A stretch of DNA of 32,000 bases, from positions 2,401 to 34,400 of the forward strand of contig CALCTW010000044.1 of NCBI GenBank assembly GCA_937907055.1, in the 5' to 3' direction. Each line of letters begins with the position of its first letter. Positions within the stretch are counted from its first letter, which is position 1. The notes beneath the pieces are model-generated. The model was not told the origin of the DNA, ran no database searches, and saw only the letters and a program-made list of their open reading frames with translations. The DNA is from an uncultured Clostridia bacterium (GTDB lineage Bacteria; Bacillota; Clostridia; Christensenellales; Aristaeellaceae). Both the position numbers and the translations under genes were made by a program. Below, one piece after another: positions 6,775 to 31,117 of this stretch.

Positions 6775-7683
6775 ATGCCGGGATCAGGCCGCATCATTTA
6801 TTATCATCTGCCCGGGCTTTTTGAGTTTACCGATCTTTACCGGGTCTTCCTTCAGCTTTACCGGGATCACCGGGACTGGTTCTATGATGACTGCCGCATC
6901 GCCTCCATCTACGGGGCTCCGGCGGATTGCCTCTGGGGCGGCGGTCGGGTCGGCTTCGGGGACGCGGATCTGTCCTCGGTCCTTTCTCTCGTCCGGGAGC
7001 ACGGCATTTCCGCCCGTCTCACGTTCAGCAATTCTCTTCTGCGGCCATAGCATCTCTCAGATCCCCGTTGCAATCGTCTCTGTGAGTCTTTTCAGCACGC
7101 GGGCCCTGTTCAAAGCGGCATCATCGTCCATTCCGATCTTCTGCTTCAGTACCTGAAGCAACGTTATCCGGATTTTTACTTCGTATCCTCCACCACCAAG
7201 GTCCTTACCCGGTTTGAGGATCTCCGTTCAGAACTGGATCGTCCTGATTTCCGCTTTGTCGTTCCCGATTTCCGTCTCAATAAGGCCTTTGATCAGCTTT
7301 CCGCCCTGACAGACATGCAGAAAAGCAAGGTCGAATTCCTCTGCAATGAATGCTGCAGCATCTCCTGTCCGGACAGGAAAGCCTGTTATGAAAATGTCAG
7401 CCGCAAAAATCTGGGGGAGACATGCCCGGATCATCGCTGCGCCTCCCCGGATGCCGGTCAGGGCTATCGTTTTTCAAAAGCCATGCGGAATCCGTCCTTC
7501 ATCAGCCTGTTCGATATCCGTACGGTCTATCTTCCGCTCGGTTTTTCTCATTTCAAGATCGAGGGGCGCAGCCTCGGCAGCGCGGTCATTCTGGAATTCC
7601 TGCTCTATTATCTCACCCGCCCGGAATTCCATCTGCAGGTGCGTGAGGAGATCTATCTTGATAGCATGCTGGATCTTTTCTGA
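6775..7683 (+). CDS. Conserved Cys-rich protein, U32-peptidase-like (KIEGR motif), interrupted by one in-frame TAG at 7048-7050. Either a pseudogene or a recoded/read-through gene.
   Basis: ORFs 6718-7050 and 7315-7683 are in the same frame. The 88 codons at 7051-7314 are open with coding-like composition and contain no ATG/GTG/TTG. The only defect is the TAG. Motifs: FKIEGRS and the CNECCSISCPDRKAC cluster. The family assignment is tentative. Confidence 0.6.
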
Positions 7684-9161: not shown

Positions 9162-11876
9162 TCAGTTCAGCTTGATGCCGTACATGGCGGCATTGCCCTT
9201 GCTGCAGGTGCCGATCACCAGCACGTTCTTATATACCGCGGGGCTGCTCTGGATCGTTCCGCCCAGGTTCAGGGTGGAGATCTCCGCGCCGCTCACGCCG
9301 TCCAGCAGGTGCAGCACGCCGCTCTCGTCCGCCTGAATGATCCAGGCGTTCCCCAGCTCGTTGTACACAGCCACGGGGGAGGAGACAGCCGTCGTGGTCA
9401 GCTCGCGGGTCCAGCGGATCTTGCCGCTCTTCTTTTCAAAGGCCATCACAGCGCTTGTCTTGCCCTTGCCGGTCATGTTCACCGTGAAGATCACCAGGTC
9501 ATCGATCGCGTTTTCACCGATCACCGGGCTGGCTTTGCATCCGGCCAGTTCGCTGCTGTTGTAAACGCAGCTCACATCCGCTTTCCAGATCTCTTCGCCG
9601 GTCAGGGCGTCCAGACGGCGGATCACACACTTTCCGTCCTTCTTTAGGCGCTCATAGCAGGTCGTTCCGGTATACAGGCCCAGATTGCCGTCCTCGTCAA
9701 AGTCCAGCGCGATGCTGGCATCCGTATTGTCGCCGCAGTCCACCGCCCACACCGTATTCATGGTGGTGGTGTCCACGCAGCGCAGCAGGCCGTAGGTATC
9801 CGCCATGTACACATATCTGCCGTACATGGCCGCGCTGCTCTCAATTCCCGTGCGGTTGTCCTTCTGGGCGTTGGCCTTGCTCTTCAGGTACACCGTGTCG
9901 GCATTGATGGTCAGGTTCGTCGCGCCGGCAGGGAAGGTGGTATGCAGATCCACCGTGTACAGCAATCCGTTCTCGCCGCCGATGATCAGCGCGTCACCGT
10001 CCTCCTGGCTCAGGAACAGGCCGGTTCCGTCAAAGGCGCCGTTGGCGGAGTATTGTTCGTTCTGGCGGCCGTTCAGGAACAACAGCTGTTTCTGATCCAC
10101 CAGGTTGTATACATAGTATCCGATCGATCCGGTTTTGTTGGCCAGCTTGGAGACCGCCTGACCGATGCCCATGATCGGGCGGGAGTAGGGATCGACCGCC
10201 GCGCTGCTCTTCAGCGGGAAGCCGATATTGATGCAGTCGCGGGTCTGTTCGCCGGTCGTCAGGTCCAGGAAGTAGATCTTTCCGTCCAGCGCGCCGAAGA
10301 TCACTTCCTTCAGTCCCTGCTTTTCCTTTTTCGCGTCATACAGGTTCATGATGGCGCGTACATCGCCGGGCCACTTGATAATGGCGGGCTGTGTGCCCCA
10401 GCCGACACCGTACAGCGTGCCGTCGCTCGTCTTCAGGCTGCCCAGATCCTTCTTCCACAGGATCTCCATCTGTCCGGTCGTGATCTCCACGGTGCTGTAG
10501 GCGGCATTGCGGCGGAAGTTGTCGCCGCGGAAGGTGAAGATACCGTTATTCGCGTAGGTATAGTGGTTCGGGTCGGGCGCGTTGTAGGGCAGCTCACGGG
10601 TGAAGCCGGATTGCTTCTTTCCGCCCTTATAGATCGCCTGCAGCAGCTTCACCAGCGAGGGATCGGTCCGGCCGGTCACGGCGGCAGCGTCCAGCACAGG
10701 CATGGGGGTCGCGGTGGGATCCGGCACCTCGGTCGGTTCCGGGGTCTCGGTGGGATTGGGCGTCGGTACCTCCGTCGGCATCGGGGTGGGCTCCGGCGTG
10801 ATCATCTCCGTGGGGGCCGGGGTCGGCACTTCGGTCTCCGCCGGCGCGGGGGCTTCGGTCGGGATCGCGGTCGCGTTCGCCACGGGCACAAATCCGGAGG
10901 CGTTCACATCCTCGGGCTCCTCGGTCGGGGCAGCGGTGGGCACCATGGTCACAAATACAGGCGCCTGTGTCACAAAGGGCACTTCGGTCACGGGCGCGGC
11001 GGTCACCGGCGCTTCGGTCTCAACGGCATCCTTCACGATCACGCGGATGCGCGCGTTGGTGTCCTTCAGTTCGGTGTTCAGGTTCTCGCGGATCTGCACG
11101 CGGAAGTAGCCGTCATATTCGGCGGCCAGATACACTCGCACATCCCAGGTGCCGTTGTCACCGTTGGTGTAGGTGCCGATCACTTCGCCGGTCTGCTCGT
11201 AGATCAGGCGGATCTCCGCCACGGAGGCAGAGGTCTTCACCGTAAATTCCAGCGGCTGCGCGGTGGTGCAGCTCTCGTTGTTGCCCTTCGGGCAAACGAT
11301 CGTCACATTGGCGCTCGTATCCTGCGTGCTCACCTCCGGCGTGACCACGGGGGCGTTCACACCGTTTCCGGTCAGGTTGCTGAATTTTTCGCCGATGCCG
11401 TTTCCGGGCACCAGCACGAAGAAGGCGATCACCAGTCCCACGATCAGCGCGATCAGCATGGCGATCAGCACCTTGGGCCACACAGGGCTGTTATCCTCTT
11501 CCGGATAGTACGGAGGCGTGTTCTCCGGGGCGTATCCGCCGTCATCGTACGGCGAATAGGGGGATTCGCCCCTCGGCATCTCATATTCGTTTCCGTTCGC
11601 GCCGGGCTGCGGGCGTTCCGCGGGACGCTCAAAGCGCGTCGTGCTGCCGGGCGCGGCAGCGGAGGCGGGCTGGAAACGCACCGTTTCGCCGCCGGCATTG
11701 CCTGTCGGCATCCTGTCTCCGCGGTGTCTGATCGTTGTATCCGGCGCGGCGGGCATCGGCGGCACGTATTCGCGCGCCTCCGGCTGCTTCTCGGTGGATT
11801 TGATATATTGCTCGTGTTCGTTCCCTCTCATCCTGTTGGGATCGTACTGCGGGTTATAGTCATGCTTTTCGCTCAA
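9162..11876 (-). CDS. Single-pass membrane protein. Domains in order: disordered Pro/Tyr-rich cytoplasmic N-terminus, TM segment, Ig-like region, Pro/Thr-rich linker, and a PQQ-like (BamB-like) beta-propeller ectodomain.
   Basis: 904 aa. TTG start preceded by GAAGGAGGG at 7 nt. TM segment is VLIAMLIALIVGLVIAFFVLV. A PT linker of about 110 aa precedes a C-terminal region with repeated G-x-hydrophobic-Y/W strand patterns typical of PQQ-like propellers. The domain call is by eye. Confidence 0.75.
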   Translation of the reverse strand: MSEKHDYNPQYDPNRMRGNEHEQYIKSTEKQPEAREYVPPMPAAPDTTIRHRGDRMPTGNAGGETVRFQPASAAAPGSTTRFERPAERPQPGANGNEYEMPRGESPYSPYDDGGYAPENTPPYYPEEDNSPVWPKVLIAMLIALIVGLVIAFFVLVPGNGIGEKFSNLTGNGVNAPVVTPEVSTQDTSANVTIVCPKGNNESCTTAQPLEFTVKTSASVAEIRLIYEQTGEVIGTYTNGDNGTWDVRVYLAAEYDGYFRVQIRENLNTELKDTNARIRVIVKDAVETEAPVTAAPVTEVPFVTQAPVFVTMVPTAAPTEEPEDVNASGFVPVANATAIPTEAPAPAETEVPTPAPTEMITPEPTPMPTEVPTPNPTETPEPTEVPDPTATPMPVLDAAAVTGRTDPSLVKLLQAIYKGGKKQSGFTRELPYNAPDPNHYTYANNGIFTFRGDNFRRNAAYSTVEITTGQMEILWKKDLGSLKTSDGTLYGVGWGTQPAIIKWPGDVRAIMNLYDAKKEKQGLKEVIFGALDGKIYFLDLTTGEQTRDCINIGFPLKSSAAVDPYSRPIMGIGQAVSKLANKTGSIGYYVYNLVDQKQLLFLNGRQNEQYSANGAFDGTGLFLSQEDGDALIIGGENGLLYTVDLHTTFPAGATNLTINADTVYLKSKANAQKDNRTGIESSAAMYGRYVYMADTYGLLRCVDTTTMNTVWAVDCGDNTDASIALDFDEDGNLGLYTGTTCYERLKKDGKCVIRRLDALTGEEIWKADVSCVYNSSELAGCKASPVIGENAIDDLVIFTVNMTGKGKTSAVMAFEKKSGKIRWTRELTTTAVSSPVAVYNELGNAWIIQADESGVLHLLDGVSGAEISTLNLGGTIQSSPAVYKNVLVIGTCSKGNAAMYGIKLN

Positions 11877-11922
11877 GTTCTTTCCCTCCTTCGCGGGTCT
11901 CAGGGGTTTATCGCAATATAAA

Positions 11923-11951
11923 AGTATAGCAGAAAATCACGCTTTTCTCAA
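11923..11951 (-). promoter_or_regulatory. SigA-like promoter for the 904-aa gene
   Basis: On the minus strand: TTGAGA, 17 nt spacer, TATACT. Confidence 0.5.
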
Positions 11952-11981
11952 GCCGTTGCCCTGCATTTTACAGCCGCCGCG

Positions 11982-12014
11982 TTTTTTTCGCTTTTTTCGC
12001 CTTTTTCGCCTTTT
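11982..12014. repeat. Four helically phased T/A tracts of lengths 7, 6, 5 and 4, separated by CGC(C)
   Basis: gTTTTTTTcgcTTTTTTcgccTTTTTcgccTTTTcc. Tract starts are 11982, 11992, 12002 and 12011. Confidence 0.9.
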
Positions 12015-12024
12015 CCGCCGGTTC

Positions 12025-13173
12025 TCAGTTTGTCCCGGCGCTTCTGTTCAGCATCACCAGCGCGCGGTTCAGGCTCGTGTCGTCATAGCTGTCCAGCGAA
12101 TAGATGAACAGCATGCTGTCGATCGTTTCCTCCGCCCCCAGCACATCGCCGATCGTCACCGAAGCCGGCAGATAACGGGTGTCCACTGCCACGATCCGCT
12201 TGTAATTCATCATCAGGAAAGGCAGCAGGCTGTTGGCAAAGCTGTCCTTCATCACAAACAGCGTGCCGTTTTCCGCGTTTTCATTCTCCAGCACGGTCAC
12301 ACCGTGGTTGCCGTCCAGATACACGGCATACATGTCATAGGTTTCGGCGCGTCCGGGGAAGATTACATGATCATAGGTTTCACCGTCAAAGGTCACTTTC
12401 ACGCTCGTTTTCGGTTCCGCCGCGCGGATCGTGTCGCTTACGCTCACGGGCAGTCCGCTTCTGGAGGCTGTCGTGCCCCGGAAGCCCGTATATTCCGTGA
12501 TCGTAAATGCATCCATGGCCGCCGCTGTCAGTCCGGTCTGTCCGCAGTAGGCTTCGTAGGCCGCGTACGCGCCCTCCAGCGTCCAGTGGTGATCGGTCAG
12601 GTAATACAGATCCTTTTCGCCTTCAAATAGCGGCTGCAGCTTCACAAAGCGCGGGTCATCCGTCAGCGCTGTGTACGCCGCGCGCTCCTCCTCAAACAGC
12701 GTTTGGCTCAGCGGCCCCATCCGGTCCGCCAATACCTCGCCGTGGGTCGGCGGTGTGATGAACGCGCAGCTTACACCGTACTTTTCCGCCATCCGGATCA
12801 GATTGTCCCGTGTCCGGCACAGCGTTTCCGCGTCCGCGTCCACAGGCTTCTCCACCAGGCTGTTTCCGGCGATCCACGCGCCCAGCTGGCTTCCGCGCCC
12901 TGTCGCCACATTATATACGGCATTCACGGATACCAGCGTGTCTCTTCCCGGCAGGTGATCGGAAAGATAGGTTTCCAGGTCATTGTTAAAGGTCCATTCA
13001 GTCAGGCTTTCCGGAGCCTTCAGCCCGGCCAGCGCGCGGCGTTCCCGGTCGGAAAAATCTTTTCCCGGCAGCACCAGCGTGCAGATCCCGATCACCAGCA
13101 GCAGGGGAAGCGCGCCGTAGGCGATGACCCGGTCCCAGACTGCTGATTTTTTCAGCTTCTTATCATCATCCAT
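12025..13173 (-). CDS. DHHW-family protein (AlgJ/AlgX/PatB-like SGNH-fold O-acyltransferase partner of MBOAT)
   Basis: 382 aa. N-terminal TM anchor, the motif YYLTDHHWT, and a downstream KDSFANS serine motif. Confidence 0.85.
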   Translation of the reverse strand: MDDDKKLKKSAVWDRVIAYGALPLLLVIGICTLVLPGKDFSDRERRALAGLKAPESLTEWTFNNDLETYLSDHLPGRDTLVSVNAVYNVATGRGSQLGAWIAGNSLVEKPVDADAETLCRTRDNLIRMAEKYGVSCAFITPPTHGEVLADRMGPLSQTLFEEERAAYTALTDDPRFVKLQPLFEGEKDLYYLTDHHWTLEGAYAAYEAYCGQTGLTAAAMDAFTITEYTGFRGTTASRSGLPVSVSDTIRAAEPKTSVKVTFDGETYDHVIFPGRAETYDMYAVYLDGNHGVTVLENENAENGTLFVMKDSFANSLLPFLMMNYKRIVAVDTRYLPASVTIGDVLGAEETIDSMLFIYSLDSYDDTSLNRALVMLNRSAGTN

Positions 13174-13185
13174 GCGGGTCTCTCC

Positions 13186-14535
13186 TTAGAATTGGAAGTA
13201 CACAAAAGGCGCGAAGCCCTCCGCCGCCAGCGCCGCCAGGCACAGCAGGAACAGAAGGATCGTCAGCACACGCTTCACCGGCATCGGCAGTTTGATCGCC
13301 GGGGCAAAGCTGATCCCGGCGCACACCAGCATCATCGGCAGGTAAGAAACACAGGTCAGCAGGGCTTTGGAACTGATGGGGGAGAAGGCGAAGATCGTTC
13401 CGGCCAGCTGTCCGCCGAAGCCGGAAAACAGCCCCCAGCCGATCACCACCAGCAAGAAGGTCACAGCCCTTCTCAGCAGGCGCGGGATCGCTTCATACCA
13501 GGCTTTTTTCAGCATGAACCGCTTCTCGATCATCAGCAGCGCCGCGAAGTAAAGTCCCCACAGCACATAGTTCCAGCCCGCGCCGTGCCACAGTCCTGTC
13601 AGCGCCCACACGATCAGAATATTCACATTTCTGCGCAGCACGCTGCACCGGCTTCCGCCCAGCGGGAAATACACATACTCGCGGAACCAGGTGGTCAGTG
13701 TCATGTGCCAGTGCCGCCAGAAGCCGGTAATGGAATCCTCGCGGTAGGGTCTGTCAAAGTTTTCAGGCAGCCGGAAGCCCATCGCTTCGCCAAGGCCCAG
13801 CGCCATGTCGGAATAGCCCGAAAAGTCAAAAAAGATCTGGAATGAGAATGCCAGAATGCCGATCACGGCGCCGATCGATCCGGCGCTCGCAAAATCGCCG
13901 TTGATCGTGCCCCACAGCCGTCCCATGGCGTCCGCCAGCAGCACCTTCTTGCCAAGGCCTACGGTAAATCGGGCCAGTCCGTGACGGATGCCCGCCGGGG
14001 TCACGTTTGCCGGGCTGTCCAACTGCGCCTCCAGGTCGGTATAGCGCACGATCGGGCCGGCTACCAGCTGGGGGAACAGTGTCAGATACACGCCGAAGCG
14101 GACGATGCTCCTTTGCGGCTTTGCCTGCCCGCGGTACACGTCGATCAGATAACTGATCCCCTGAAAGGTAAAGAACGAGATGCCGGCCGGCAGCACCGGG
14201 TCATCAAAAGCCATGCCCCAGCCGGTCAGGCCGCGCACGGTCTCAAGGAAAAACCCTGTGTACTTGTAATAGAGCAGCGGCAGCACATTCAAAATGATCA
14301 GCCCCGCCAGCACCGCCTTCCGCTGCTTTCCGCCGCGTGTCATGAACAGGGCTCCGGCCCAGTCCAGCACCAGCACGTACAAAAGCAGGATCAGCCACAG
14401 CGGCGATCCCCACGCGTAAAACAAAAGCGAGGCCGCTAATAAAAACGGCCTTTTCGCTTTTTGCGGCAGCAGCTTATGCCCCAGCAGCACCGCGGGCATA
14501 AACAGCAGCAGAAATGTAAAGGAACAAAACAGCAT
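13186..14535 (-). CDS. MBOAT-family membrane-bound O-acyltransferase (AlgI/DltB/PatA-like)
   Basis: 449 aa and polytopic. It shows an AlgI-like N-terminus (MLFCSFTFLLLF), FWRHWHMTLTTWFREYVYFPLGG, and WHG containing the conserved His. Confidence 0.9.
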   Translation of the reverse strand: MLFCSFTFLLLFMPAVLLGHKLLPQKAKRPFLLAASLLFYAWGSPLWLILLLYVLVLDWAGALFMTRGGKQRKAVLAGLIILNVLPLLYYKYTGFFLETVRGLTGWGMAFDDPVLPAGISFFTFQGISYLIDVYRGQAKPQRSIVRFGVYLTLFPQLVAGPIVRYTDLEAQLDSPANVTPAGIRHGLARFTVGLGKKVLLADAMGRLWGTINGDFASAGSIGAVIGILAFSFQIFFDFSGYSDMALGLGEAMGFRLPENFDRPYREDSITGFWRHWHMTLTTWFREYVYFPLGGSRCSVLRRNVNILIVWALTGLWHGAGWNYVLWGLYFAALLMIEKRFMLKKAWYEAIPRLLRRAVTFLLVVIGWGLFSGFGGQLAGTIFAFSPISSKALLTCVSYLPMMLVCAGISFAPAIKLPMPVKRVLTILLFLLCLAALAAEGFAPFVYFQF

Positions 14536-14551
14536 TCGTTTTTCTCTCCGG

Positions 14552-15073
14552 TCAGCGTCCCTGCAGCACGGCGCGGGTCTCTTCAGCCGCGTCGCTGCCC
14601 ACGATCAGCACCACGGTGTTGCCCTTGCGCTCCACCTTGGCCGCGCTCAGCAGCTTGTATTCATCGGGCAGGTAGTTCTGGGTCTCCTTCATGCGCTGAT
14701 TCAGGTATTTGTTCAGCGCGCTCTCGGCCTTGTCGGCAGCGGCGCTGTCATTGGCGGTCAGCACGATCACGCAGCGGGCGCTCACGCCGTCCTCGCTCTC
14801 AAAGTAGACGATCTCGCTGTAGCTTTCCTCCGTAAGACCGATCAGCTCGCAGATGATCGCGCCGGGGAATTCCACAATGCCGTCCGTGTTCTTCAGCGCG
14901 TCCTTCACCGCTGCAGGCTCATTCACCGCGGGCGCGCTCGTCGCTTCCGCGGGCGCGGCGGTCGCCGCGTTCTTTTCATCGGTCTTCGTGTTATTTCCGC
15001 AGGCGCACAGGCCGGTCATCAGCACCAGCAGCAGAAGCGCGCATCCAATACTCTTTTTCTTCATATCTTTCAC
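14552..15073 (-). CDS. Small lipoprotein (DUF4358-like, tentative)
   Basis: 173 aa. Signal sequence plus lipobox LMTGLCAC|G. Confidence 0.7.
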   Translation of the reverse strand: MKDMKKKSIGCALLLLVLMTGLCACGNNTKTDEKNAATAAPAEATSAPAVNEPAAVKDALKNTDGIVEFPGAIICELIGLTEESYSEIVYFESEDGVSARCVIVLTANDSAAADKAESALNKYLNQRMKETQNYLPDEYKLLSAAKVERKGNTVVLIVGSDAAEETRAVLQGR

Positions 15074-15082
15074 TTATCTCCT

Positions 15083-15844
15083 TTATTTCGGTTCCCAGCG
15101 CCCGGCATCCGCTTCGCTCCGGGCAAAGTCCAGCAGGCATTCCACCCACAGCTTCAGCCCGTCGTCGCCCAGGTGATACTTGCCGTCCGAGGAATAGCTT
15201 TCCTTCAGATAACCTTCCTCGTCCTTCAGCACCTCGGCGATCTCCAGATACACCGCGCCGTTCTTTTCGCAGGCAGCCTTCATGGCCACGTTGTATTTGT
15301 CCCACATCGTGCGGTAGTCTTTTTTCCGGCAGAACGCGCGTGTCACCGGGGTCAGGGACTGGAACACGATCACCGTCTCGGGGGAGGCTTCTTTGGCCAG
15401 CTCGATGATCCTTTCCACATAGCCGATCCCCTTGTCGATCGTCTCGCCGATATAGTCATTCACGCCCAGCAGGATGAACACATAGCGCGGCTTCAGCTGG
15501 CGGATGATGTTGGTCATCGTGCTCTCATCGCCGTTCAGGGTCAGGTTCACCGCGTCGCTCTGCAGGTATTTGCGGCTGGCGATATACAGCATATAGCTCT
15601 GCGCGGTAAAGAACCGTGTGCCTTTCATGAAGGCCGGGTCCTTCTTCTGCTGCTCCAGCACATACACGCGCAATTGTCTTGTGATCGAGTCGCCCACAAA
15701 AATGCAGTTGTCAAAGAAGGGATAAAGCGCCTCGTTACTCAGCCGTTGTATTGTGCTTTCTGTCTGCTCCTCCGCGTTCACACCCGGCAAAAGCAGCAGG
15801 ATCATCATCAGCGCCAGCAGCGCTGCAGTCAGGCGGTGCATCAT
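15083..15844 (-). CDS. Secreted SGNH/GDSL-family hydrolase or acyltransferase
   Basis: Block I is FVGDSITRQ, block III is LLGVNDY, and block V is DGKYHLGDDG. A signal peptide is present. The start at 15844 (MMHRL) is preferred, with RBS GGAAGGGGG upstream. The ORF track extends it to 15874. Confidence 0.8.
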   Translation of the reverse strand: MMHRLTAALLALMMILLLLPGVNAEEQTESTIQRLSNEALYPFFDNCIFVGDSITRQLRVYVLEQQKKDPAFMKGTRFFTAQSYMLYIASRKYLQSDAVNLTLNGDESTMTNIIRQLKPRYVFILLGVNDYIGETIDKGIGYVERIIELAKEASPETVIVFQSLTPVTRAFCRKKDYRTMWDKYNVAMKAACEKNGAVYLEIAEVLKDEEGYLKESYSSDGKYHLGDDGLKLWVECLLDFARSEADAGRWEPK

Positions 15845-16037
15845 GTTTTCCCCCTTCCGTTCAACGTGTTCCATTATATGCTTTGCTCCCCTTCTTTGTC
15901 AACCGCCGGGGGCGCTTCACCCCTTGCGGGAACGGCTTTTCTATGGTATCCTGCTCATAACGCATTCTGTTTTTTTACATTGTTAAGGGTCCGCGTTTCA
16001 TGCGCGTGATCCATGATCTATGAAAGGAAGTATTTCT

Positions 16038-17108: not shown

Positions 17109-17290
17109 CCGGGCCTGCGCTCTGCTTCTGTCCATCAGCGGCTGTGTCTGCATTCACCTTTTTTGGATGCCGTATCTTCCGCGTCCCGCGTGATCCACAG
17201 GTTCGGGCGCGCGCGTCACGCTCTGCTGTCTGGTATCAGCTTCAGTCATGACGCGTGACGGGGTATGAGCATTTTCCGGTCAACACCCTG

Positions 17291-17318
17291 TTGCGTGCCC
17301 TCTTTTCTGTGGTATACT
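17291..17318 (+). promoter_or_regulatory. SigA-like promoter with extended -10 for the rph operon
   Basis: TTGCGT, 16 nt spacer, TGGTATACT. Confidence 0.5.
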
Positions 17319-17404
17319 GTAGTCGAAAATCGGAATCTTTCCCGTCTGCCGCCGTTCTGGTCCGGCGTCCTTCCGGGATCGTCTGTTATAAAAGGAGAAT
17401 GATT

Positions 17405-18712
17405 ATGACCCGCTGCAGCAACGAACTCAGAGAACATACGATCATCCCCGGCTTTGTGGCCACGGCGGATGGCAGCTGCCTCATCAGCACCGGCAATACC
17501 AAGGTCATCTGCACGGCCTCCATCGATGAATCCGTTCCGCCCTTCCTGCGCGGCAAGGGCATGGGCTGGGTCACGGCGGAATACGCCATGCTGCCCGCCT
17601 CCACCGGCCATCGCAAGGCCCGTGACGGGGTCAAGAAGGATGGCCGCGGCGTGGAGATCAGCCGTCTCATCGGCCGCGCGCTGCGTCAGGCGGTGGATCG
17701 CCGTTATATGGACGGCTTCACCATCACCATCGACTGCGATGTGCTTCAGGCGGACGGCGGCACCCGCACCGCCTCCATCACCGGCGGCTTTGTCGCGCTC
17801 TGCCTCGCGGTGGATAAACTCCTCCGGCAGGGCAAGCTTAAGCAGTCTCCCATCATCCATCAGATCAGCGCGGTCTCTGCCGGCATCTGTGAAGATGTCC
17901 CCACGCTGGATCTTTGCTACGAGCAGGATTCCTCCGCGCAGGTGGATATGAACTTCGTCATGGATGACGCCGGTCATTTTGTTGAATTGCAGGGCACCGG
18001 CGAAGGCCGTGCCTTCTCGGATGAAGAACTGGCCTCTCTGCTTTCGCTGGGCAAGAAGGGCTGCATGGAATTGCAGGCGCTTCAGCGCGAAGCCCTTGGC
18101 GAGGCCGTGTCCGTCATCGCGCCCAGGCGTGTCATCGTTCTGGCCAGCAATAACGCCCATAAGGTGGTCGAGCTCAAGACCATGCTGGGCGATCGCTACA
18201 CCGTCCTCTCCATGAAGGAAGCCGGCATCGATACCGATATCGATGAAAACGGCGAGACCTTCGAGGAAAACGCCCTCATCAAGGCGCGCGCCGTGTGCCG
18301 GCTCACCGGTCTTCCGGCGCTGGCGGATGACAGCGGTCTCGCGGTCGATGCCCTCGGCGGCGCGCCCGGTGTCCACAGCGCCCGCTATGCCGGTGAACAC
18401 GGCAATGACAAGGCCAATAATGATCTCCTCATCGAAAACATGAAGGATGTTCCGGATGAAAAGCGTACCGCCTCCTTCGTCAGCTGCGTGGCGCTGGTCA
18501 CGCCCTGGGGCGAGGAGGCTGCCCGTGAGGGCCGCTGCCCCGGTGTCATCATCCACGAAAGCCGCGGCAACGGCGGCTTCGGCTATGACCCCTATTTCCT
18601 GTATGAATCGGGCCGCACCTTCGCGGAAATGGGCGCGGAGGAGAAGAACGCCATCTCGCACCGCGCCATCGCCATGGCCGCCATGCTGCCCGTCATTCTC
18701 GAAATCCTGTAA
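17405..18712 (+). CDS. rph: Bifunctional fusion of RNase PH and RdgB/HAM1-type non-canonical NTP (dITP/XTP) pyrophosphatase
   Basis: The RNase PH part (to about 18100) contains GSCLISTGNTKVICTAS, GWVTAEYAMLP and DCDVLQADGGTRTASITG. The RdgB part (from about 18125) contains VLASNNAHKVVEL, ADDSGLAVDALGGAPGVHSARY, GFGYDPYF and ISHRA. The start at 17405 follows AAGGAG. Confidence 0.9.
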   Translation: MTRCSNELREHTIIPGFVATADGSCLISTGNTKVICTASIDESVPPFLRGKGMGWVTAEYAMLPASTGHRKARDGVKKDGRGVEISRLIGRALRQAVDRRYMDGFTITIDCDVLQADGGTRTASITGGFVALCLAVDKLLRQGKLKQSPIIHQISAVSAGICEDVPTLDLCYEQDSSAQVDMNFVMDDAGHFVELQGTGEGRAFSDEELASLLSLGKKGCMELQALQREALGEAVSVIAPRRVIVLASNNAHKVVELKTMLGDRYTVLSMKEAGIDTDIDENGETFEENALIKARAVCRLTGLPALADDSGLAVDALGGAPGVHSARYAGEHGNDKANNDLLIENMKDVPDEKRTASFVSCVALVTPWGEEAAREGRCPGVIIHESRGNGGFGYDPYFLYESGRTFAEMGAEEKNAISHRAIAMAAMLPVILEIL

Positions 18713-18726
18713 GGAGGGGCCTTCCC

Positions 18727-19191
18727 ATGATCACACTCGGTGTCGTGTCCGATTCTCATGGCGATAAAGGCCGCCTCGGCAACATCATGATGATGTTTTA
18801 GTATAAGAAGGTGGACGGGGTCATCCATCTGGGGGATGGCTGCCGGGATATGGAGCCCTATGCCGCGGCCTTCAGACAGGTCTGGCAGGTCGCCGGCAAC
18901 TGTGATTTTTCCTCCCTTCCGCGGGAGGAGGTCATCACGATAGGCGGACAGCGCATCCTGATCACCCACGGGCATCGCTTCATGGTCAAGAGCAGCACCA
19001 CGCTGCTCGGCATAGAGGCGGAGGAGCAGGGGGTCAAAGCCGCGCTCTTCGGTCACACGCACGAGCCCTTTATCGATTATCACGGCGGCATCCTGCTGCT
19101 GAACCCCGGTTCCGCGCATGACGGCTGCTACGCCATATTGAAGATCCACGATAACGGCATGGTGGAGGGCGAGCTCAACCGCCGCGCCTGA
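18727..19191 (+). CDS. YfcE/YsnB-family metallophosphoesterase with one in-frame TAG at 18799-18801 (codon 25). Either a pseudogene or a recoded/read-through gene.
   Basis: ATG 18727 follows RBS AAGGAGGGG. The N-terminal segment MITLGVVSDSHG carries the essential DxH motif. After the TAG the same frame continues with VDGVIHLGDG, GNCD, ITHGH and GHTH. There are no other defects. Confidence 0.75.
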
Positions 19192-27632: not shown

Positions 27633-28106
27633 ATGGGAAAGATCTTCAAGTTTGAAAAGGACGTGGATACCGATCAGATCATCGCGTCCCAGTATCTGCT
27701 GTTTCCCACCATCGATGAAATGAAGGCGCACACGTTCGAGTCGCTGGATACCGCCTTTGCCTCTCAGGTAAAGCCGGGCGATTTTGTGGTGGCGGATGAA
27801 AATTTCGGCTGCGGCTCCTCGCGTGAGCAGGCCCCCAGCGTGCTGAAGGCGCTGGGTGTCAAGGCCGTTGTGGCCAAGTCCTTCGCGCGCATCTTCTACC
27901 GCAATTCCATCAACATCGGCATGCCGGTCATCGTCAGCAAGGAGCTGCACGATGTCGTTTCCGCGGGCGATGAAATGGAACTGGATCTGGAAAAGGGTCA
28001 GATCACCGCGAACGGAAAGATCTATCCCTGCACCCGTCTTCCCGGCAAAATGCAGGAGATCCTGGATCAGGGCGGTCTGATCGCCAGCTTGAATAAGGAG
28101 GATTGA
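27633..28106 (+). CDS. leuD: Aconitase-family dehydratase small subunit (LeuD-like), paralog 1
   Basis: 157 aa. Motifs [20 protein letters not shown] and ARIFYRNSIN. Confidence 0.88.
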   Translation: MGKIFKFEKDVDTDQIIASQYLLFPTIDEMKAHTFESLDTAFASQVKPGDFVVADENFGCGSSREQAPSVLKALGVKAVVAKSFARIFYRNSINIGMPVIVSKELHDVVSAGDEMELDLEKGQITANGKIYPCTRLPGKMQEILDQGGLIASLNKED

Positions 28107-28110
28107 CATC

Positions 28111-29361
28111 ATGGGCATGACAATGGCTGAAAAGATCATCGCCTGCGCCGCGGGCGTTCCGTCGACCAAAGCCGGTGATATCGAGACCGTCACGCTGGAT
28201 CGTCTCATGAGCAATGACGGCACCACCCACCTGACGATCGATATGTACAATAATAAATTAACCAATCCGCGCATCGCGGATGTTTCCAAGCTGGTCTGGA
28301 TCGTGGATCACAATATCCCGGCGGACAGCCCGAAGACTGCCGCTTCCCAGAAAAAGATGCGTGATTTCGCGCGCGAGCACGGCATCACCTTCTATGAGGG
28401 CGAGGGCGTGTGTCATCAGGTGATGATGGAAAAGCACGTCCGTCCGGGCGAACTGATCTTCGGCGCGGATTCCCACACGTGCGCCTACGGCGCGCTCGGC
28501 GCGTTCGGCACCGGCGTCGGCTGCACGGATTACCTTTACGCCATGGTCACCGGCACCTCCTGGCTGCTGGTCCCGGAGACCTTGCGTTTTAATTTGAAGG
28601 GCCGCCTGCCCGAGGGCGTTTACGCCCGTGATCTGATCCTTACCATCATCGGCCGCATCGGCGCGAACGGCGCTAATTACAAGGCCATGGAGTTCGCGGG
28701 GGAGGGCCTTGCCACCCTCACGATGGCGGATCGTATCTCCATCTGCAACCTGTGCGTGGAGGCCGGCGCGAAGACCGCGCTGATGGAGGTGGATGACACC
28801 GCCATGGCGTATCTGACTGAGCATGGCCGTACGCCCAAGGCTGTTTTCACCTCCGATCCCGATGCCGTGTTCGCCAAAGTCTATGATATCGACCTGTCCG
28901 AGATCCGCCCCATCGTGGCAAAGCCCCACTTTGTGGATAATGTGGTCCCGGCGGAGGAATGCCTCGGCGTTCATATCGATGAAGCCTTCCTCGGCTCCTG
29001 CAATAACGGCCGCATCGAGGATCTGCGTGTCGGCGCCGCGGTCATCAAGGGCAAGAAGGTCGCGCCCAAGGTGCGCTTCCTCGTGGTCCCGGCCAGCCGC
29101 GCGGTCTATAAGCAGGCCATGCTGGAGGGCCTCCTCGATATCTTCATGGAAGCCGGCGCGATCGTCATGAACCCCAACTGCTCCGTGTGCTGGGGCGCCT
29201 GTCAGGGCGTCATCGGCGAGGGCGAAACGCTCATTTCCACCGGCACCCGCAATTTCAAGGGCCGCGCCGGTCACAAGGATTCCTTTGTTTATCTGGCTTC
29301 GGCCGCCACGGTCACCGCTTCCGCGATCGCGGGCGAGATCACCACGGCGGACCGCGTGTAA
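28111..29361 (+). CDS. leuC: Aconitase-family dehydratase large subunit (LeuC-like, short archaeal/clostridial type), paralog 1
   Basis: 416 aa. GADSHTCAYGALGAFGTG, with Fe-S cysteines in GSCNNGR and NCSVCWG. RBS AAGGAGGA. Confidence 0.9.
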   Translation: MGMTMAEKIIACAAGVPSTKAGDIETVTLDRLMSNDGTTHLTIDMYNNKLTNPRIADVSKLVWIVDHNIPADSPKTAASQKKMRDFAREHGITFYEGEGVCHQVMMEKHVRPGELIFGADSHTCAYGALGAFGTGVGCTDYLYAMVTGTSWLLVPETLRFNLKGRLPEGVYARDLILTIIGRIGANGANYKAMEFAGEGLATLTMADRISICNLCVEAGAKTALMEVDDTAMAYLTEHGRTPKAVFTSDPDAVFAKVYDIDLSEIRPIVAKPHFVDNVVPAEECLGVHIDEAFLGSCNNGRIEDLRVGAAVIKGKKVAPKVRFLVVPASRAVYKQAMLEGLLDIFMEAGAIVMNPNCSVCWGACQGVIGEGETLISTGTRNFKGRAGHKDSFVYLASAATVTASAIAGEITTADRV

Positions 29362-29373
29362 CGGAGGGACGAT

Positions 29374-29862
29374 ATGACATTTACAGCAAAGATCTGGGTG
29401 CTGGGGGATGACATCGACACCGATATCATCCTGCCCACCGAATATCTGGCGCTCAAGAGCGTGGAGGATATGAAGCCCTACGCCTTCTCTCCGCTCCGTC
29501 CGGAGCTGGCCGCTCTCATTCAGCCCGGCGATATGATCGTGGCCGGCAAGAATTTCGGCTGCGGCTCCTCGCGTGAGCAGGCCCCCGAGGTGGTCAAGGC
29601 GCTGGGCATCTCCTGCGTGGTGGCCAAGTCCTACGCGCGCATTTTCTTCCGCAACGCCATCAATAACGGCCTTTTGCTCATCGAGAACGCCGATCTTTAC
29701 GATGCCGTCACCGAGGGCGGCACGGCGGAGGTCACTCCGGGCGAAAAGATCGTCTACAACGGCAAGACCTACGAGATCGCTTCCTTGCCGGAGAATCTGA
29801 TGGAGATCCTGAACGCCGGCGGGCTTGTCAAGGCCATGAGAAAACGGAACGGTCTGGGCTGA
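29374..29862 (+). CDS. leuD: Aconitase-family dehydratase small subunit (LeuD-like), paralog 2
   Basis: 162 aa. Motifs [21 protein letters not shown] and [10 protein letters not shown]. Confidence 0.88.
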
Positions 29863-29875
29863 GCAGGAGGACAGA

Positions 29876-31117
29876 ATGGGAAATACAGTTATCGAAAAGA
29901 TCATTGGCAATAAGGTTGGCCATCCTGTGCGCCCCGGTGATATCGTCACCGTGCCGGTGGACTGGTGCATGGTCGATGACATCATGGTGCCGTTCTGCGT
30001 CAAAAAGTTTGAGGAAATGGGCTTCAAAAAGGTCTGGGATCCGGATCGTGTGGTGCTGATCTACGATCACTTCCTGCCGGCCACGCAGACCGATGATTCC
30101 CGTCACTTCCGCGAGGGCGACGCCTTCGCCGAAAAATACGGCATCCGCAATATCCACCGCACGGACGGCATCTGCCATCAATTGATGACCGAGGCCGGTT
30201 ATGTGAAGCCGGGCGATATCTCCTTCGGCACGGACAGCCACACGGTCACCTACGGCTGTGTCGGCGCGTTCGCGACCGGCATCGGTTACACCGAGATGGC
30301 CGGCATTTTGGGCACGGGCGAGTTGTGGATCCGCGTGCCGGAATCCATTCGGGTGGAGATCAACGGCACATTGCCTCAAAATGTCACCTCCAAGGATGTC
30401 ATCCTGCGCGTGATCGGCGATCTGACCGCTTCCGGCGCCACCTACCGCTCTTTGGAATTCTGCGGCAGCACCGTGGATGCCATGAGCGTGGCCGGCCGCA
30501 TGACCATGTCCAACATGGCGGTGGAGGCCGGCGCCAAGTGCGGCGTGTTCGCGCCGGATGAGAAGACCTGCGAATACTGCGGCATTCCCTTCACCGAGAA
30601 GGAAAAGGCGCTGCAGGCGGACGCGGACGCTTCCTACGCGCGGGTGCTGCGCTATCAGGCGGAGGAGCTGGTGCCCGTCGTGGCCTGCCCCTCGCTGGTG
30701 GATAATATCAAACCGGTCTCCGAGGTGGCGGGCACCAGGGTGGATCAGGTGTTCCTGGGCTCCTGCACCAACGGCCGTCTTGAGGATCTGCAGGCGGCCG
30801 CCCAAATCCTGAAGGGCAAGACCATCGCCCCCTATCTCAAGATGATCGTCACCCCGGCCAGCCGCAAGGTCTACCGCGCGGCGCTGCAGGACGGCACACT
30901 GGAGATCCTGGCCGATGCCGGATGCATCATCACCACGCCGGGCTGCGGCCTTTGCTGCGGACGCGGCGGCGGCATCCTGTCGGATCATGAAGTGGTGGTC
31001 GCCACCAATAACCGCAATTTCCTGGGCCGTATGGGCACCAGCAAGGTGCAGATCTATCTGGCCTCCCCGAAGACCGCGGCCATGACCGCGCTCGCGGGCG
31101 TGATCACGCAGGCCTGA
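29876..31117 (+). CDS. leuC: Aconitase-family dehydratase large subunit (LeuC-like), paralog 2
   Basis: 413 aa. GTDSHTVTYGCVGAFATG, with Fe-S cysteines in GSCTNGR and GCGLCCG. Confidence 0.9.
   Translation: MGNTVIEKIIGNKVGHPVRPGDIVTVPVDWCMVDDIMVPFCVKKFEEMGFKKVWDPDRVVLIYDHFLPATQTDDSRHFREGDAFAEKYGIRNIHRTDGICHQLMTEAGYVKPGDISFGTDSHTVTYGCVGAFATGIGYTEMAGILGTGELWIRVPESIRVEINGTLPQNVTSKDVILRVIGDLTASGATYRSLEFCGSTVDAMSVAGRMTMSNMAVEAGAKCGVFAPDEKTCEYCGIPFTEKEKALQADADASYARVLRYQAEELVPVVACPSLVDNIKPVSEVAGTRVDQVFLGSCTNGRLEDLQAAAQILKGKTIAPYLKMIVTPASRKVYRAALQDGTLEILADAGCIITTPGCGLCCGRGGGILSDHEVVVATNNRNFLGRMGTSKVQIYLASPKTAAMTALAGVITQA

Follow-up and report, generated by a model that had tools for sequence, protein, structure and literature searches.

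The subject of this analysis is a 32,000-nucleotide stretch of DNA from an uncultured Clostridia bacterium (hereafter the window, meaning the whole of this stretch), in which a gene for a YfcE/YsnB-type metallophosphoesterase, denoted here the ysnB-like gene, contains an in-frame TAG triplet. The gene comes directly after an open reading frame (ORF) that encodes a fusion of RNase PH with RdgB and stops with TAA 18710-18712, and it is equipped with a Shine-Dalgarno-like sequence, AAGGAGGGG, the GGAGG core of which ends 9 nt upstream of ATG 18727. On direct reading, this ATG, the TAG at 18799-18801 and the TGA at 19189-19191 share one frame, with codons 1-24 (MITLGVVSDSHGDKGRLGNIMMMF) being followed by TAG as codon 25. 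Under the standard code, translation past the TAG could begin at GTG 18811 at the earliest, and the product initiated there would be devoid of strand beta-1 and the DxH metal ligands; the public gene callers accordingly give the gene in a 126-aa or a 113-aa version.

The protein obtained by reading through the TAG looks like a complete member of its family. The Pfam domain Metallophos_2 (PF12850) spans the TAG (residues 4-140, E=2.7e-26), and the columns that are invariant in homologue alignments, namely D9, H11, G36-D37, G57-N58-C59-D60, H81 and G109-H110-T111-H112, are all found in the read-through frame, so that the five metallophosphoesterase motifs (DxH, GDxxD, GNxD, H and GHxH) belong to one polypeptide, with the TAG falling between motif I (DxH) and motif II (GDxxD). 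AlphaFold2 models this polypeptide as one compact domain (mean predicted local distance difference test score, pLDDT, 95.5; predicted template modelling score, pTM, 0.91) in which beta-1 (residues 2-7) and helix alpha-1 (residues 14-23) precede the TAG and residue 25 lies in the loop between alpha-1 and beta-2. The top Foldseek match to the model is the COG0622 phosphoesterase 3ck2 (E=1e-14), with Vps29, MJ0936 (1s3l) and YfcE (1su1) among the further matches. Thus, the product is predicted to adopt the calcineurin-like beta-sandwich fold and, judging by its motifs, appears to be an ordinary member of the YfcE/YsnB family (PF12850, COG0622), with a predicted phosphoesterase activity. It shares with YfcE, YsnB and MJ0936 all five motifs, the fold and the adjacency to rph-rdgB, and the sole difference is the TAG at codon 25: what is unusual here is the code in which the gene is written and not the product. 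A preliminary description of this DNA, made from the sequence alone, had presented the gene as well signalled and broken by nothing other than the TAG, with motif I ahead of the TAG and motifs II-V behind it in the same frame, with GTG 18811 as the only downstream start, yielding a product without motif I, and with a location directly behind the rph-rdgB fusion, and all of this is borne out, the upstream ORF indeed carrying RNase_PH, RNase_PH_C and Ham1p_like domains.

Is the TAG real, and is the gene that contains it functional? The preliminary description had allowed that close relatives could have a sense codon at this position, with nothing else speaking for the decoding of TAG; instead, TAG is present at codon 25 in four further assemblies, L001 (ENA ERZ27247138), L003 (the NCBI metagenome-assembled genome, MAG, GCA_045628485.1), L004 (Logan SRR21151017) and L005 (Logan SRR21150884), the loci of which are 96.5-97.9% identical to the window at the nucleotide level. 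Because the same codon is found in five assemblies, a sequencing error can be rejected. Among these five strains, 18 codons of the ysnB-like gene vary, 17 of them synonymously and only one nonsynonymously (P44L), whereas random change under neutrality should be nonsynonymous in about 77% of cases; upstream of the TAG, there are three synonymous and no nonsynonymous variable codons. Nonsynonymous changes make up a fraction of 0.06 in this gene, a value as low as in LeuA and the aconitase-family genes, compared with 0.22 when the genes of the region are taken together. Purifying selection therefore acts on the gene both ahead of the TAG and behind it, in a single frame. In a collection of 15 billion proteins, no full-length product of this gene from this species at more than 65% identity occurs among the matches listed, where the entries for this species are 113 or 126 aa long. 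In more distant metagenome relatives, the codon-25 column is occupied by GAA, GAG or CAG. A scan of the GTDB representative genomes with the YsnB protein recovered only an unrelated match from Acidobacteria, and a scan of metagenome contigs with the same protein found nothing.

The ysnB-like gene is not alone in containing a TAG. The preliminary description had reported a second interrupted gene at 6775-7683, which is likewise real. Its U32-like product falls into no Pfam family, is named 'collagenase-like PrtC family protease' in one JGI record, and is conserved at 70-75% identity across many Clostridia. The next in-frame start past the TAG in this gene, ATG 7315, lies 88 codons downstream; the 91-aa N-terminal fragment that ends at the TAG is known in three strain variants, and a homologue search with the C-terminal part returned no strain-level fragments. 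About 8 kb to the left of the window, the gene for the fatty-acid kinase FakA contains TAG at codon 315 in two assemblies, where it is called as two genes of 314 and 216 aa, and CAG (Gln) in two other strains of the species, which encode the full-length protein of 556 aa (P0352, P0353). Two more cases are private to L003, in a SpoIIE-domain gene and in a GDSL-lipase gene (Table 1); these lie within 10 kb of each other at positions where sister strains have GAG, which suggests ongoing turnover from GAG to TAG. Three of the four additional core TAGs (those in fakA, the SpoIIE-domain gene and the GDSL-lipase gene) are polymorphic between strains, so TAG interchanges with GAG or CAG within the species. 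In a codon-by-codon comparison of all strains, covering 55,010 aligned codon cells, neither a convincing frameshift nor a convincing TAA or TGA in frame emerged. The apparent stops in htrA of L003 turned out to be an artefact of a scrambled contig end (L003 10846-10878), and an apparent stop at codon 2 of the DUF4358 gene is also an artefact, being located upstream of the true start. The last ~30 bases of the L003 contig cannot be aligned to the other strains and are probably an assembly artefact. Nor are the TAGs of L003 attributable to G>T damage, since 48 of the 55 private changes in this assembly are transitions, a normal spectrum.

Table 1. Coordinates of the TAG-containing genes and of associated features. 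Positions refer to the window unless a locus is named.
Feature	Position	Strand	Remarks
YfcE/YsnB-type metallophosphoesterase coding sequence	18727..19191	+	154 codons, TAG codon 25 read through, ends with TGA
In-frame TAG, codon 25	18799..18801	+	kept in 5 assemblies; alignment column mostly E
Shine-Dalgarno-like AAGGAGGGG	18711..18719	+	direct sequence reading
Downstream ORF, sole possibility under the standard code	18811..19191	+	GTG start, 126 aa, without motif I
rph-rdgB fusion (RNase PH + Ham1/RdgB)	17255..18712	+	Pfam RNase_PH, RNase_PH_C, Ham1p_like; 485-codon ORF
U32-like gene	6775..7683	+	302 codons, TAG 7048-7050 (codon 92); second TAG-containing core gene
FakA (fatty-acid kinase)	L006 8794-10467 = L015 12858-14531 (-) = L007 8744-10417		TAG codon 315; ~8 kb left of window start
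SpoIIE-domain gene codon	20356..20358	+	GCG in window, GAG in two strains, TAG in L003 9540-9542
GDSL-lipase codon 36 (from ATG 15874)	15767..15769	-	GAG in window and two other strains, TAG in L003
Island ORF	L016 6578-7765 (= L017 783-1970)		396 codons, 2 in-frame TAG, no in-frame TAA/TGA
Island ORF	L011 15987 to 14914	-	358 codons, 4 in-frame TAG, no in-frame TAA/TGA

If TAG is a sense codon, it should not be used to end genes, and this is indeed what we observe. By exact-protein walking, about 75 kb of the genome of this species was assembled (L015 and L006 on the left, L001 across the window, L011 and L016 on the right), and within this scope the tool-called genes stop with TGA in 31 cases, TAA in 18 and TAG in four. 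All four called TAG ends run into a continuing ORF, one being the N-terminal fragment of FakA and the other three fragments in AT-rich islands; with two window genes added, genuine TAG terminators amount to none in 51 genes. TAG is thus absent as a terminator in this part of the species' genome. The same holds for a related species represented by GCA_002315555.1 (GC content 52%, Leu proteins 89-96% identical to those of this species), where none of 16 genes stops with TAG (TAA 9, TGA 7) and none contains an in-frame TAG either, a situation that fits a state in which the codon has vanished or the same recoding at very low usage. The outgroups L023 and L024, by contrast, do end genes with TAG: of 13 ORFs, 3 genuinely terminate there, and the DNA that follows is plainly non-coding. 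As to the related species itself, its MAG, a UBA assembly, also has counterparts in two JGI metagenomes (loci L019-L022; 3300001598 / 3300020112), and one of these loci, L021, has a frameshift in a nagB-like gene.

Because the TAG is real, kept in five assemblies, located in a gene under purifying selection and never employed as a terminator, the lineage appears to translate it. Taking all of this together, we consider it quite probable that TAG is a rare sense codon in this lineage of Clostridia and that the ysnB-like gene is intact, encoding 154 residues, with glutamate as the most likely residue at codon 25. The preliminary description had pointed to the decoding of TAG, and this is strengthened by the missing TAG terminators, by the additional in-frame TAGs in core genes and by the selection acting across the TAG; what is added here is the probable residue, the extent of the lineage and the contrast with the outgroups.

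So which amino acid is inserted at TAG? Four of the five core TAG sites correspond to Glu (GAG) in relatives or strains, and one to Gln. In particular, codon 25 of the ysnB-like gene aligns with E in each of the 8 nearest homologues and in 71 of the 119 examined overall, and the codon-92 column of the U32-like gene is E in all 14 homologues at 70-75% identity. Were the TAGs random nonsense mutations, at least four of five would arise from GAG with P=0.003-0.008 (eight one-step codons counted, 50 genes). Furthermore, base-change rates taken from four-fold degenerate sites of the same multi-strain alignment provide the numbers of polymorphisms expected under neutrality. For GAG/TAG, 4.6 are expected and 2 observed (P=0.16), whereas for CAG/TAG 13 are expected and none is observed in the DNA set (one at the protein level; P ~2e-6), for AAG/TAG 7 are expected and none is observed (P=0.0009), and for TGG/TAG 3.7 are expected and none is observed (P=0.026). 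By these counts, TAG behaves almost as a synonym of GAG would, but not as a synonym of CAG, AAG or TGG, and the test favours Glu over Gln, a Lys-like residue or an arrangement in which any residue is tolerated, such as pyrrolysine (Pyl). Both of the polymorphic GAG/TAG sites come from L003. Editing of adenosine to inosine, which would convert UAG to UGG (Trp), was also considered and set aside by inference, given that the columns are Glu or Gln and not Trp and that there is no hairpin context of the TACG type. All in all, we would put the assignment of Glu to TAG, as judged from alignment columns and polymorphism, at about an even balance.

A mechanism for such decoding can be sketched. Translation of the ysnB-like gene would run from ATG 18727 through TAG 18799 to TGA 19191. 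The decoder would be a tRNA with a CUA anticodon, most simply a derivative of tRNA-Glu(CUC) or tRNA-Gln(CUG) changed at position 36, that would be charged by a non-discriminating glutamyl-tRNA synthetase (GluRS). Most Firmicutes lack a glutaminyl-tRNA synthetase, and since their non-discriminating GluRS accepts both C36 and G36, charging of the CUA tRNA with Glu could be eased. Release factor 1 (RF1) would be lost or weakened, by analogy with the loss of release factor 2 (RF2) in bacteria that have recoded UGA. The sequences that follow the TAGs have no RNA structure in common, nor any of unusual stability (z -0.5 to -1.8), so the decoding appears to be independent of context, and a cis element resembling the pyrrolysine or selenocysteine insertion sequences (PYLIS or SECIS) is not supported. 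The fullest form of this scenario, namely that a GC-rich lineage of Clostridia known from metagenomes reads UAG as glutamate and terminates only at UAA and UGA, with RF1 presumably lost and a tRNA-Glu(CUA) acquired, which would be a bacterial code not previously described, is one that we hold tentatively, as slightly short of an even chance. The recoded lineage would include at least this species (MAG GCA_045628485.1) and probably the species of GCA_002315555.1.

Several observations weigh against the reading of TAG as a sense codon, most likely for glutamate. In the ~100 kb of the lineage that were read, only part of the genome, there is no tRNA with a CUA anticodon; the single tRNA there is tRNA-Ser(GGA), and Rfam likewise found only this tRNA. 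The inference of the residue comes from five sites, two of them from one MAG (L003), and the TAG site in FakA is a conserved Gln. TAG is very rare in core genes, at ~0.02% of codons. In addition, that none of the 51 genes ends in TAG is less telling if the natural usage of TAG as a stop was already low in the lineage: by simple arithmetic, P is ~0.07 at a usage of 5%.

One alternative retains TAG as a sense codon but has it encode glutamine, via a tRNA-Gln(CUA), as it does in phages with code 15. According to the literature, phages and eukaryotes that reassign UAG usually do so to Gln, and the FakA site speaks for this reading, since two assemblies have TAG there and Q is found in two other strains as well as in PDB 7w7h. 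Against it, Glu columns account for four of the five TAGs, with E conserved throughout the family in two of these columns; this and the lack in the DNA set of the ~13 CAG/TAG polymorphisms expected from the C>T rate, were TAG synonymous with CAG, make the explanation unlikely. One could also imagine that TAG stands for Pyl genome-wide, as an equivalent in bacteria of Code 34 of the archaea, which is the sole genome-wide reassignment of UAG known in prokaryotes from the literature and displays the same pattern, with no TAG terminators and with TAG inside housekeeping genes. A Pyl code, though, would give no reason for the TAGs to cluster at Glu columns (P ~0.001 for at least four of five from GAG when the sources are weighted by mutational input) or for AAG/TAG pairs to be missing; moreover, the ~100 kb seen contain no methylamine methyltransferase gene and no pyl gene, and Code 34 is stated not to have been observed in bacteria (bioRxiv 10.1101/2024.09.30.615893). 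At this coverage none of these arguments is decisive, and on balance we regard the possibility as improbable.

A different kind of explanation does without a full change of the code. The code could be ambiguous, or leaky, if RF1 is still present and TAG is read part of the time by a natural amber suppressor of moderate efficiency, which would yield full-length alongside truncated proteins, possibly in a regulatory capacity. This would account for the rarity of TAG in core genes, for the polymorphism of three of the five TAG sites within the species, as if TAG were tolerated rather than fully neutral, and for the GAG/TAG count being somewhat below the neutral expectation, but it fits poorly with the fixation of two TAGs in conserved genes under strong constraint, and the total absence of TAG terminators points beyond occasional leakage; accordingly, we deem it improbable. 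Finally, the genes might simply be pseudogenes or null alleles inactivated by nonsense mutations, given that GAG>TAG and CAG>TAG are single-step nonsense mutations and that MAG consensus sequences can carry null alleles, with the missing TAG terminators being a coincidence of codon bias. This view is largely refuted and in our estimate has very little chance of being correct, considering the 17 to 1 preponderance of synonymous changes in the ysnB-like gene, extending upstream of the TAG, the fact that every disruption is a TAG and never a TAA, a TGA or a frameshift, the distribution of TAG terminators between this species, its relative and the outgroups, and the lack of a version of the ysnB-like gene from this species that is full-length or has a sense codon among the matches listed in the protein collection.

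How would a lineage that reads TAG as a sense codon compare with the known departures from the standard code? In the literature of 2021-2026, every known change of the code in bacteria reassigns UGA, and the reassignments of UAG on record are confined to phages (Gln), some archaea (Pyl) and eukaryotes; we found no report there of a natural reassignment of UAG in bacteria. The bacteria that have recoded UGA (codes 4 and 25: Mycoplasmatales, insect endosymbionts, Absconditabacteria, Gracilibacteria and MAGs of Eggerthellaceae) resemble the present case in that a stop codon is lost as a terminator and appears in frame in conserved chromosomal genes and in that the change is lineage-specific, with close outgroups on the standard code. 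They differ in the codon, which here is UAG, such that the dispensable factor is expected to be RF1 rather than RF2, and in the genome, which here is GC-rich (58%) and not obviously reduced. With the crAss-like, Lak and other phages whose code 15 assigns TAG to Gln, the shared feature is the reading of TAG as sense, there by a suppressor tRNA(CUA), as is proposed here; the differences are that the TAGs described here are in chromosomal housekeeping genes (the rph operon, fakA, a sporulation phosphatase) and not in phage genomes, and that they align mainly with Glu, with CAG/TAG exchange far below the neutral expectation. A prokaryotic parallel in the use of stops is the archaeal Code 34, the only genome-wide reassignment of UAG in prokaryotes, which is found in some archaea and not in bacteria (Kivenson et al., bioRxiv 10.1101/2024.09.30.615893). 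It too is a two-stop code with TAG inside housekeeping genes and with coding density reduced so little that standard annotation pipelines miss it, but it is a code of Archaea that depends on the pyl machinery, whereas the bias toward Glu columns here argues for a standard amino acid. UAG as glutamate, finally, is shared with the codes of peritrich ciliates (code 30) and Blastocrithidia (code 31), which are eukaryotic nuclear codes that reassign UAA as well, unlike the present lineage, where TAA still terminates (18 of 49 stops).

A further set of in-frame TAGs comes from two ORFs in AT-rich islands (Table 1), both in DNA of 36% GC. Each of the remaining frames there contains 7-32 TAA/TGA. The ORF in L011 has four in-frame TAGs against four and five in its two other forward frames; in this frame, TAG appears not to be selected against and TAA and TGA appear to be. 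No family in Pfam or PHROGs matches either of the two proteins; the tblastn search of phage and plasmid records covered one of them, island359, and gave no match. The island ORFs could in principle stem from a mobile element recoded at TAG and are for this reason taken as supporting evidence only; with TAG at ~1% of codons, these accessory islands suggest a reservoir of mobile DNA that would have adapted to this code too. The ORF in L011 occupies the place that is taken in L016 and L018 by the tip of an RHS/YD-repeat toxin, in a region that varies between strains, and the ORF in L016/L017 adjoins a gene for an HTH_26 regulator.

Other features of the neighbourhood can be described briefly. The gene callers place the start of rph-rdgB at 17405 (435 aa) in strains L001, L003 and L004. 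Three relatives at a greater distance, found in metagenomes and with rph-rdgB at 68% identity, likewise have the ysnB-like gene behind rph-rdgB; this order would mirror rph-ysnA-ysnB of Bacillus subtilis, a parallel drawn in the preliminary description. A scan of metagenomes with rph-rdgB found 372 stretches that encode relatives, and many of the best 80 of the 372 match both domains, so the fusion of RNase PH with RdgB/Ham1 looks widespread. On the reverse strand, at 9162-15874, there is a cluster comprising a 904-aa beta-propeller protein (PQQ-like), a DHHW protein, an MBOAT acyltransferase, a DUF4358 protein and the GDSL lipase, which looks like a module for the O-acylation of polysaccharide or teichoic acid. 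Two successive pairs of aconitase-family genes (157+416 aa and 162+413 aa) are located at 27633-31117, upstream of leuA and leuB, with the small subunit first in each pair, an arrangement that is kept in the related species (L019).

The implications, should the interpretation hold, extend beyond a single phosphoesterase. This would be the fourth bacterial code and would introduce a free-living, GC-rich bacterium with UAG as a codon for a standard amino acid. In the synthetic recoding of Escherichia coli, the loss of RF1 had to be engineered, and the lineage would offer a natural test case for such a loss. The finding also exposes a blind spot of annotation, inasmuch as public callers break these genes into fragments of 113, 126, 91, 314 and 216 aa; tools that predict the code from coding density would miss the recoding because the density barely changes, and, if the reading is correct, standard annotation pipelines silently truncate the genes of the lineage. 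Furthermore, the existence of such a lineage would bear on the question of which hosts are compatible with TAG-recoded phages.
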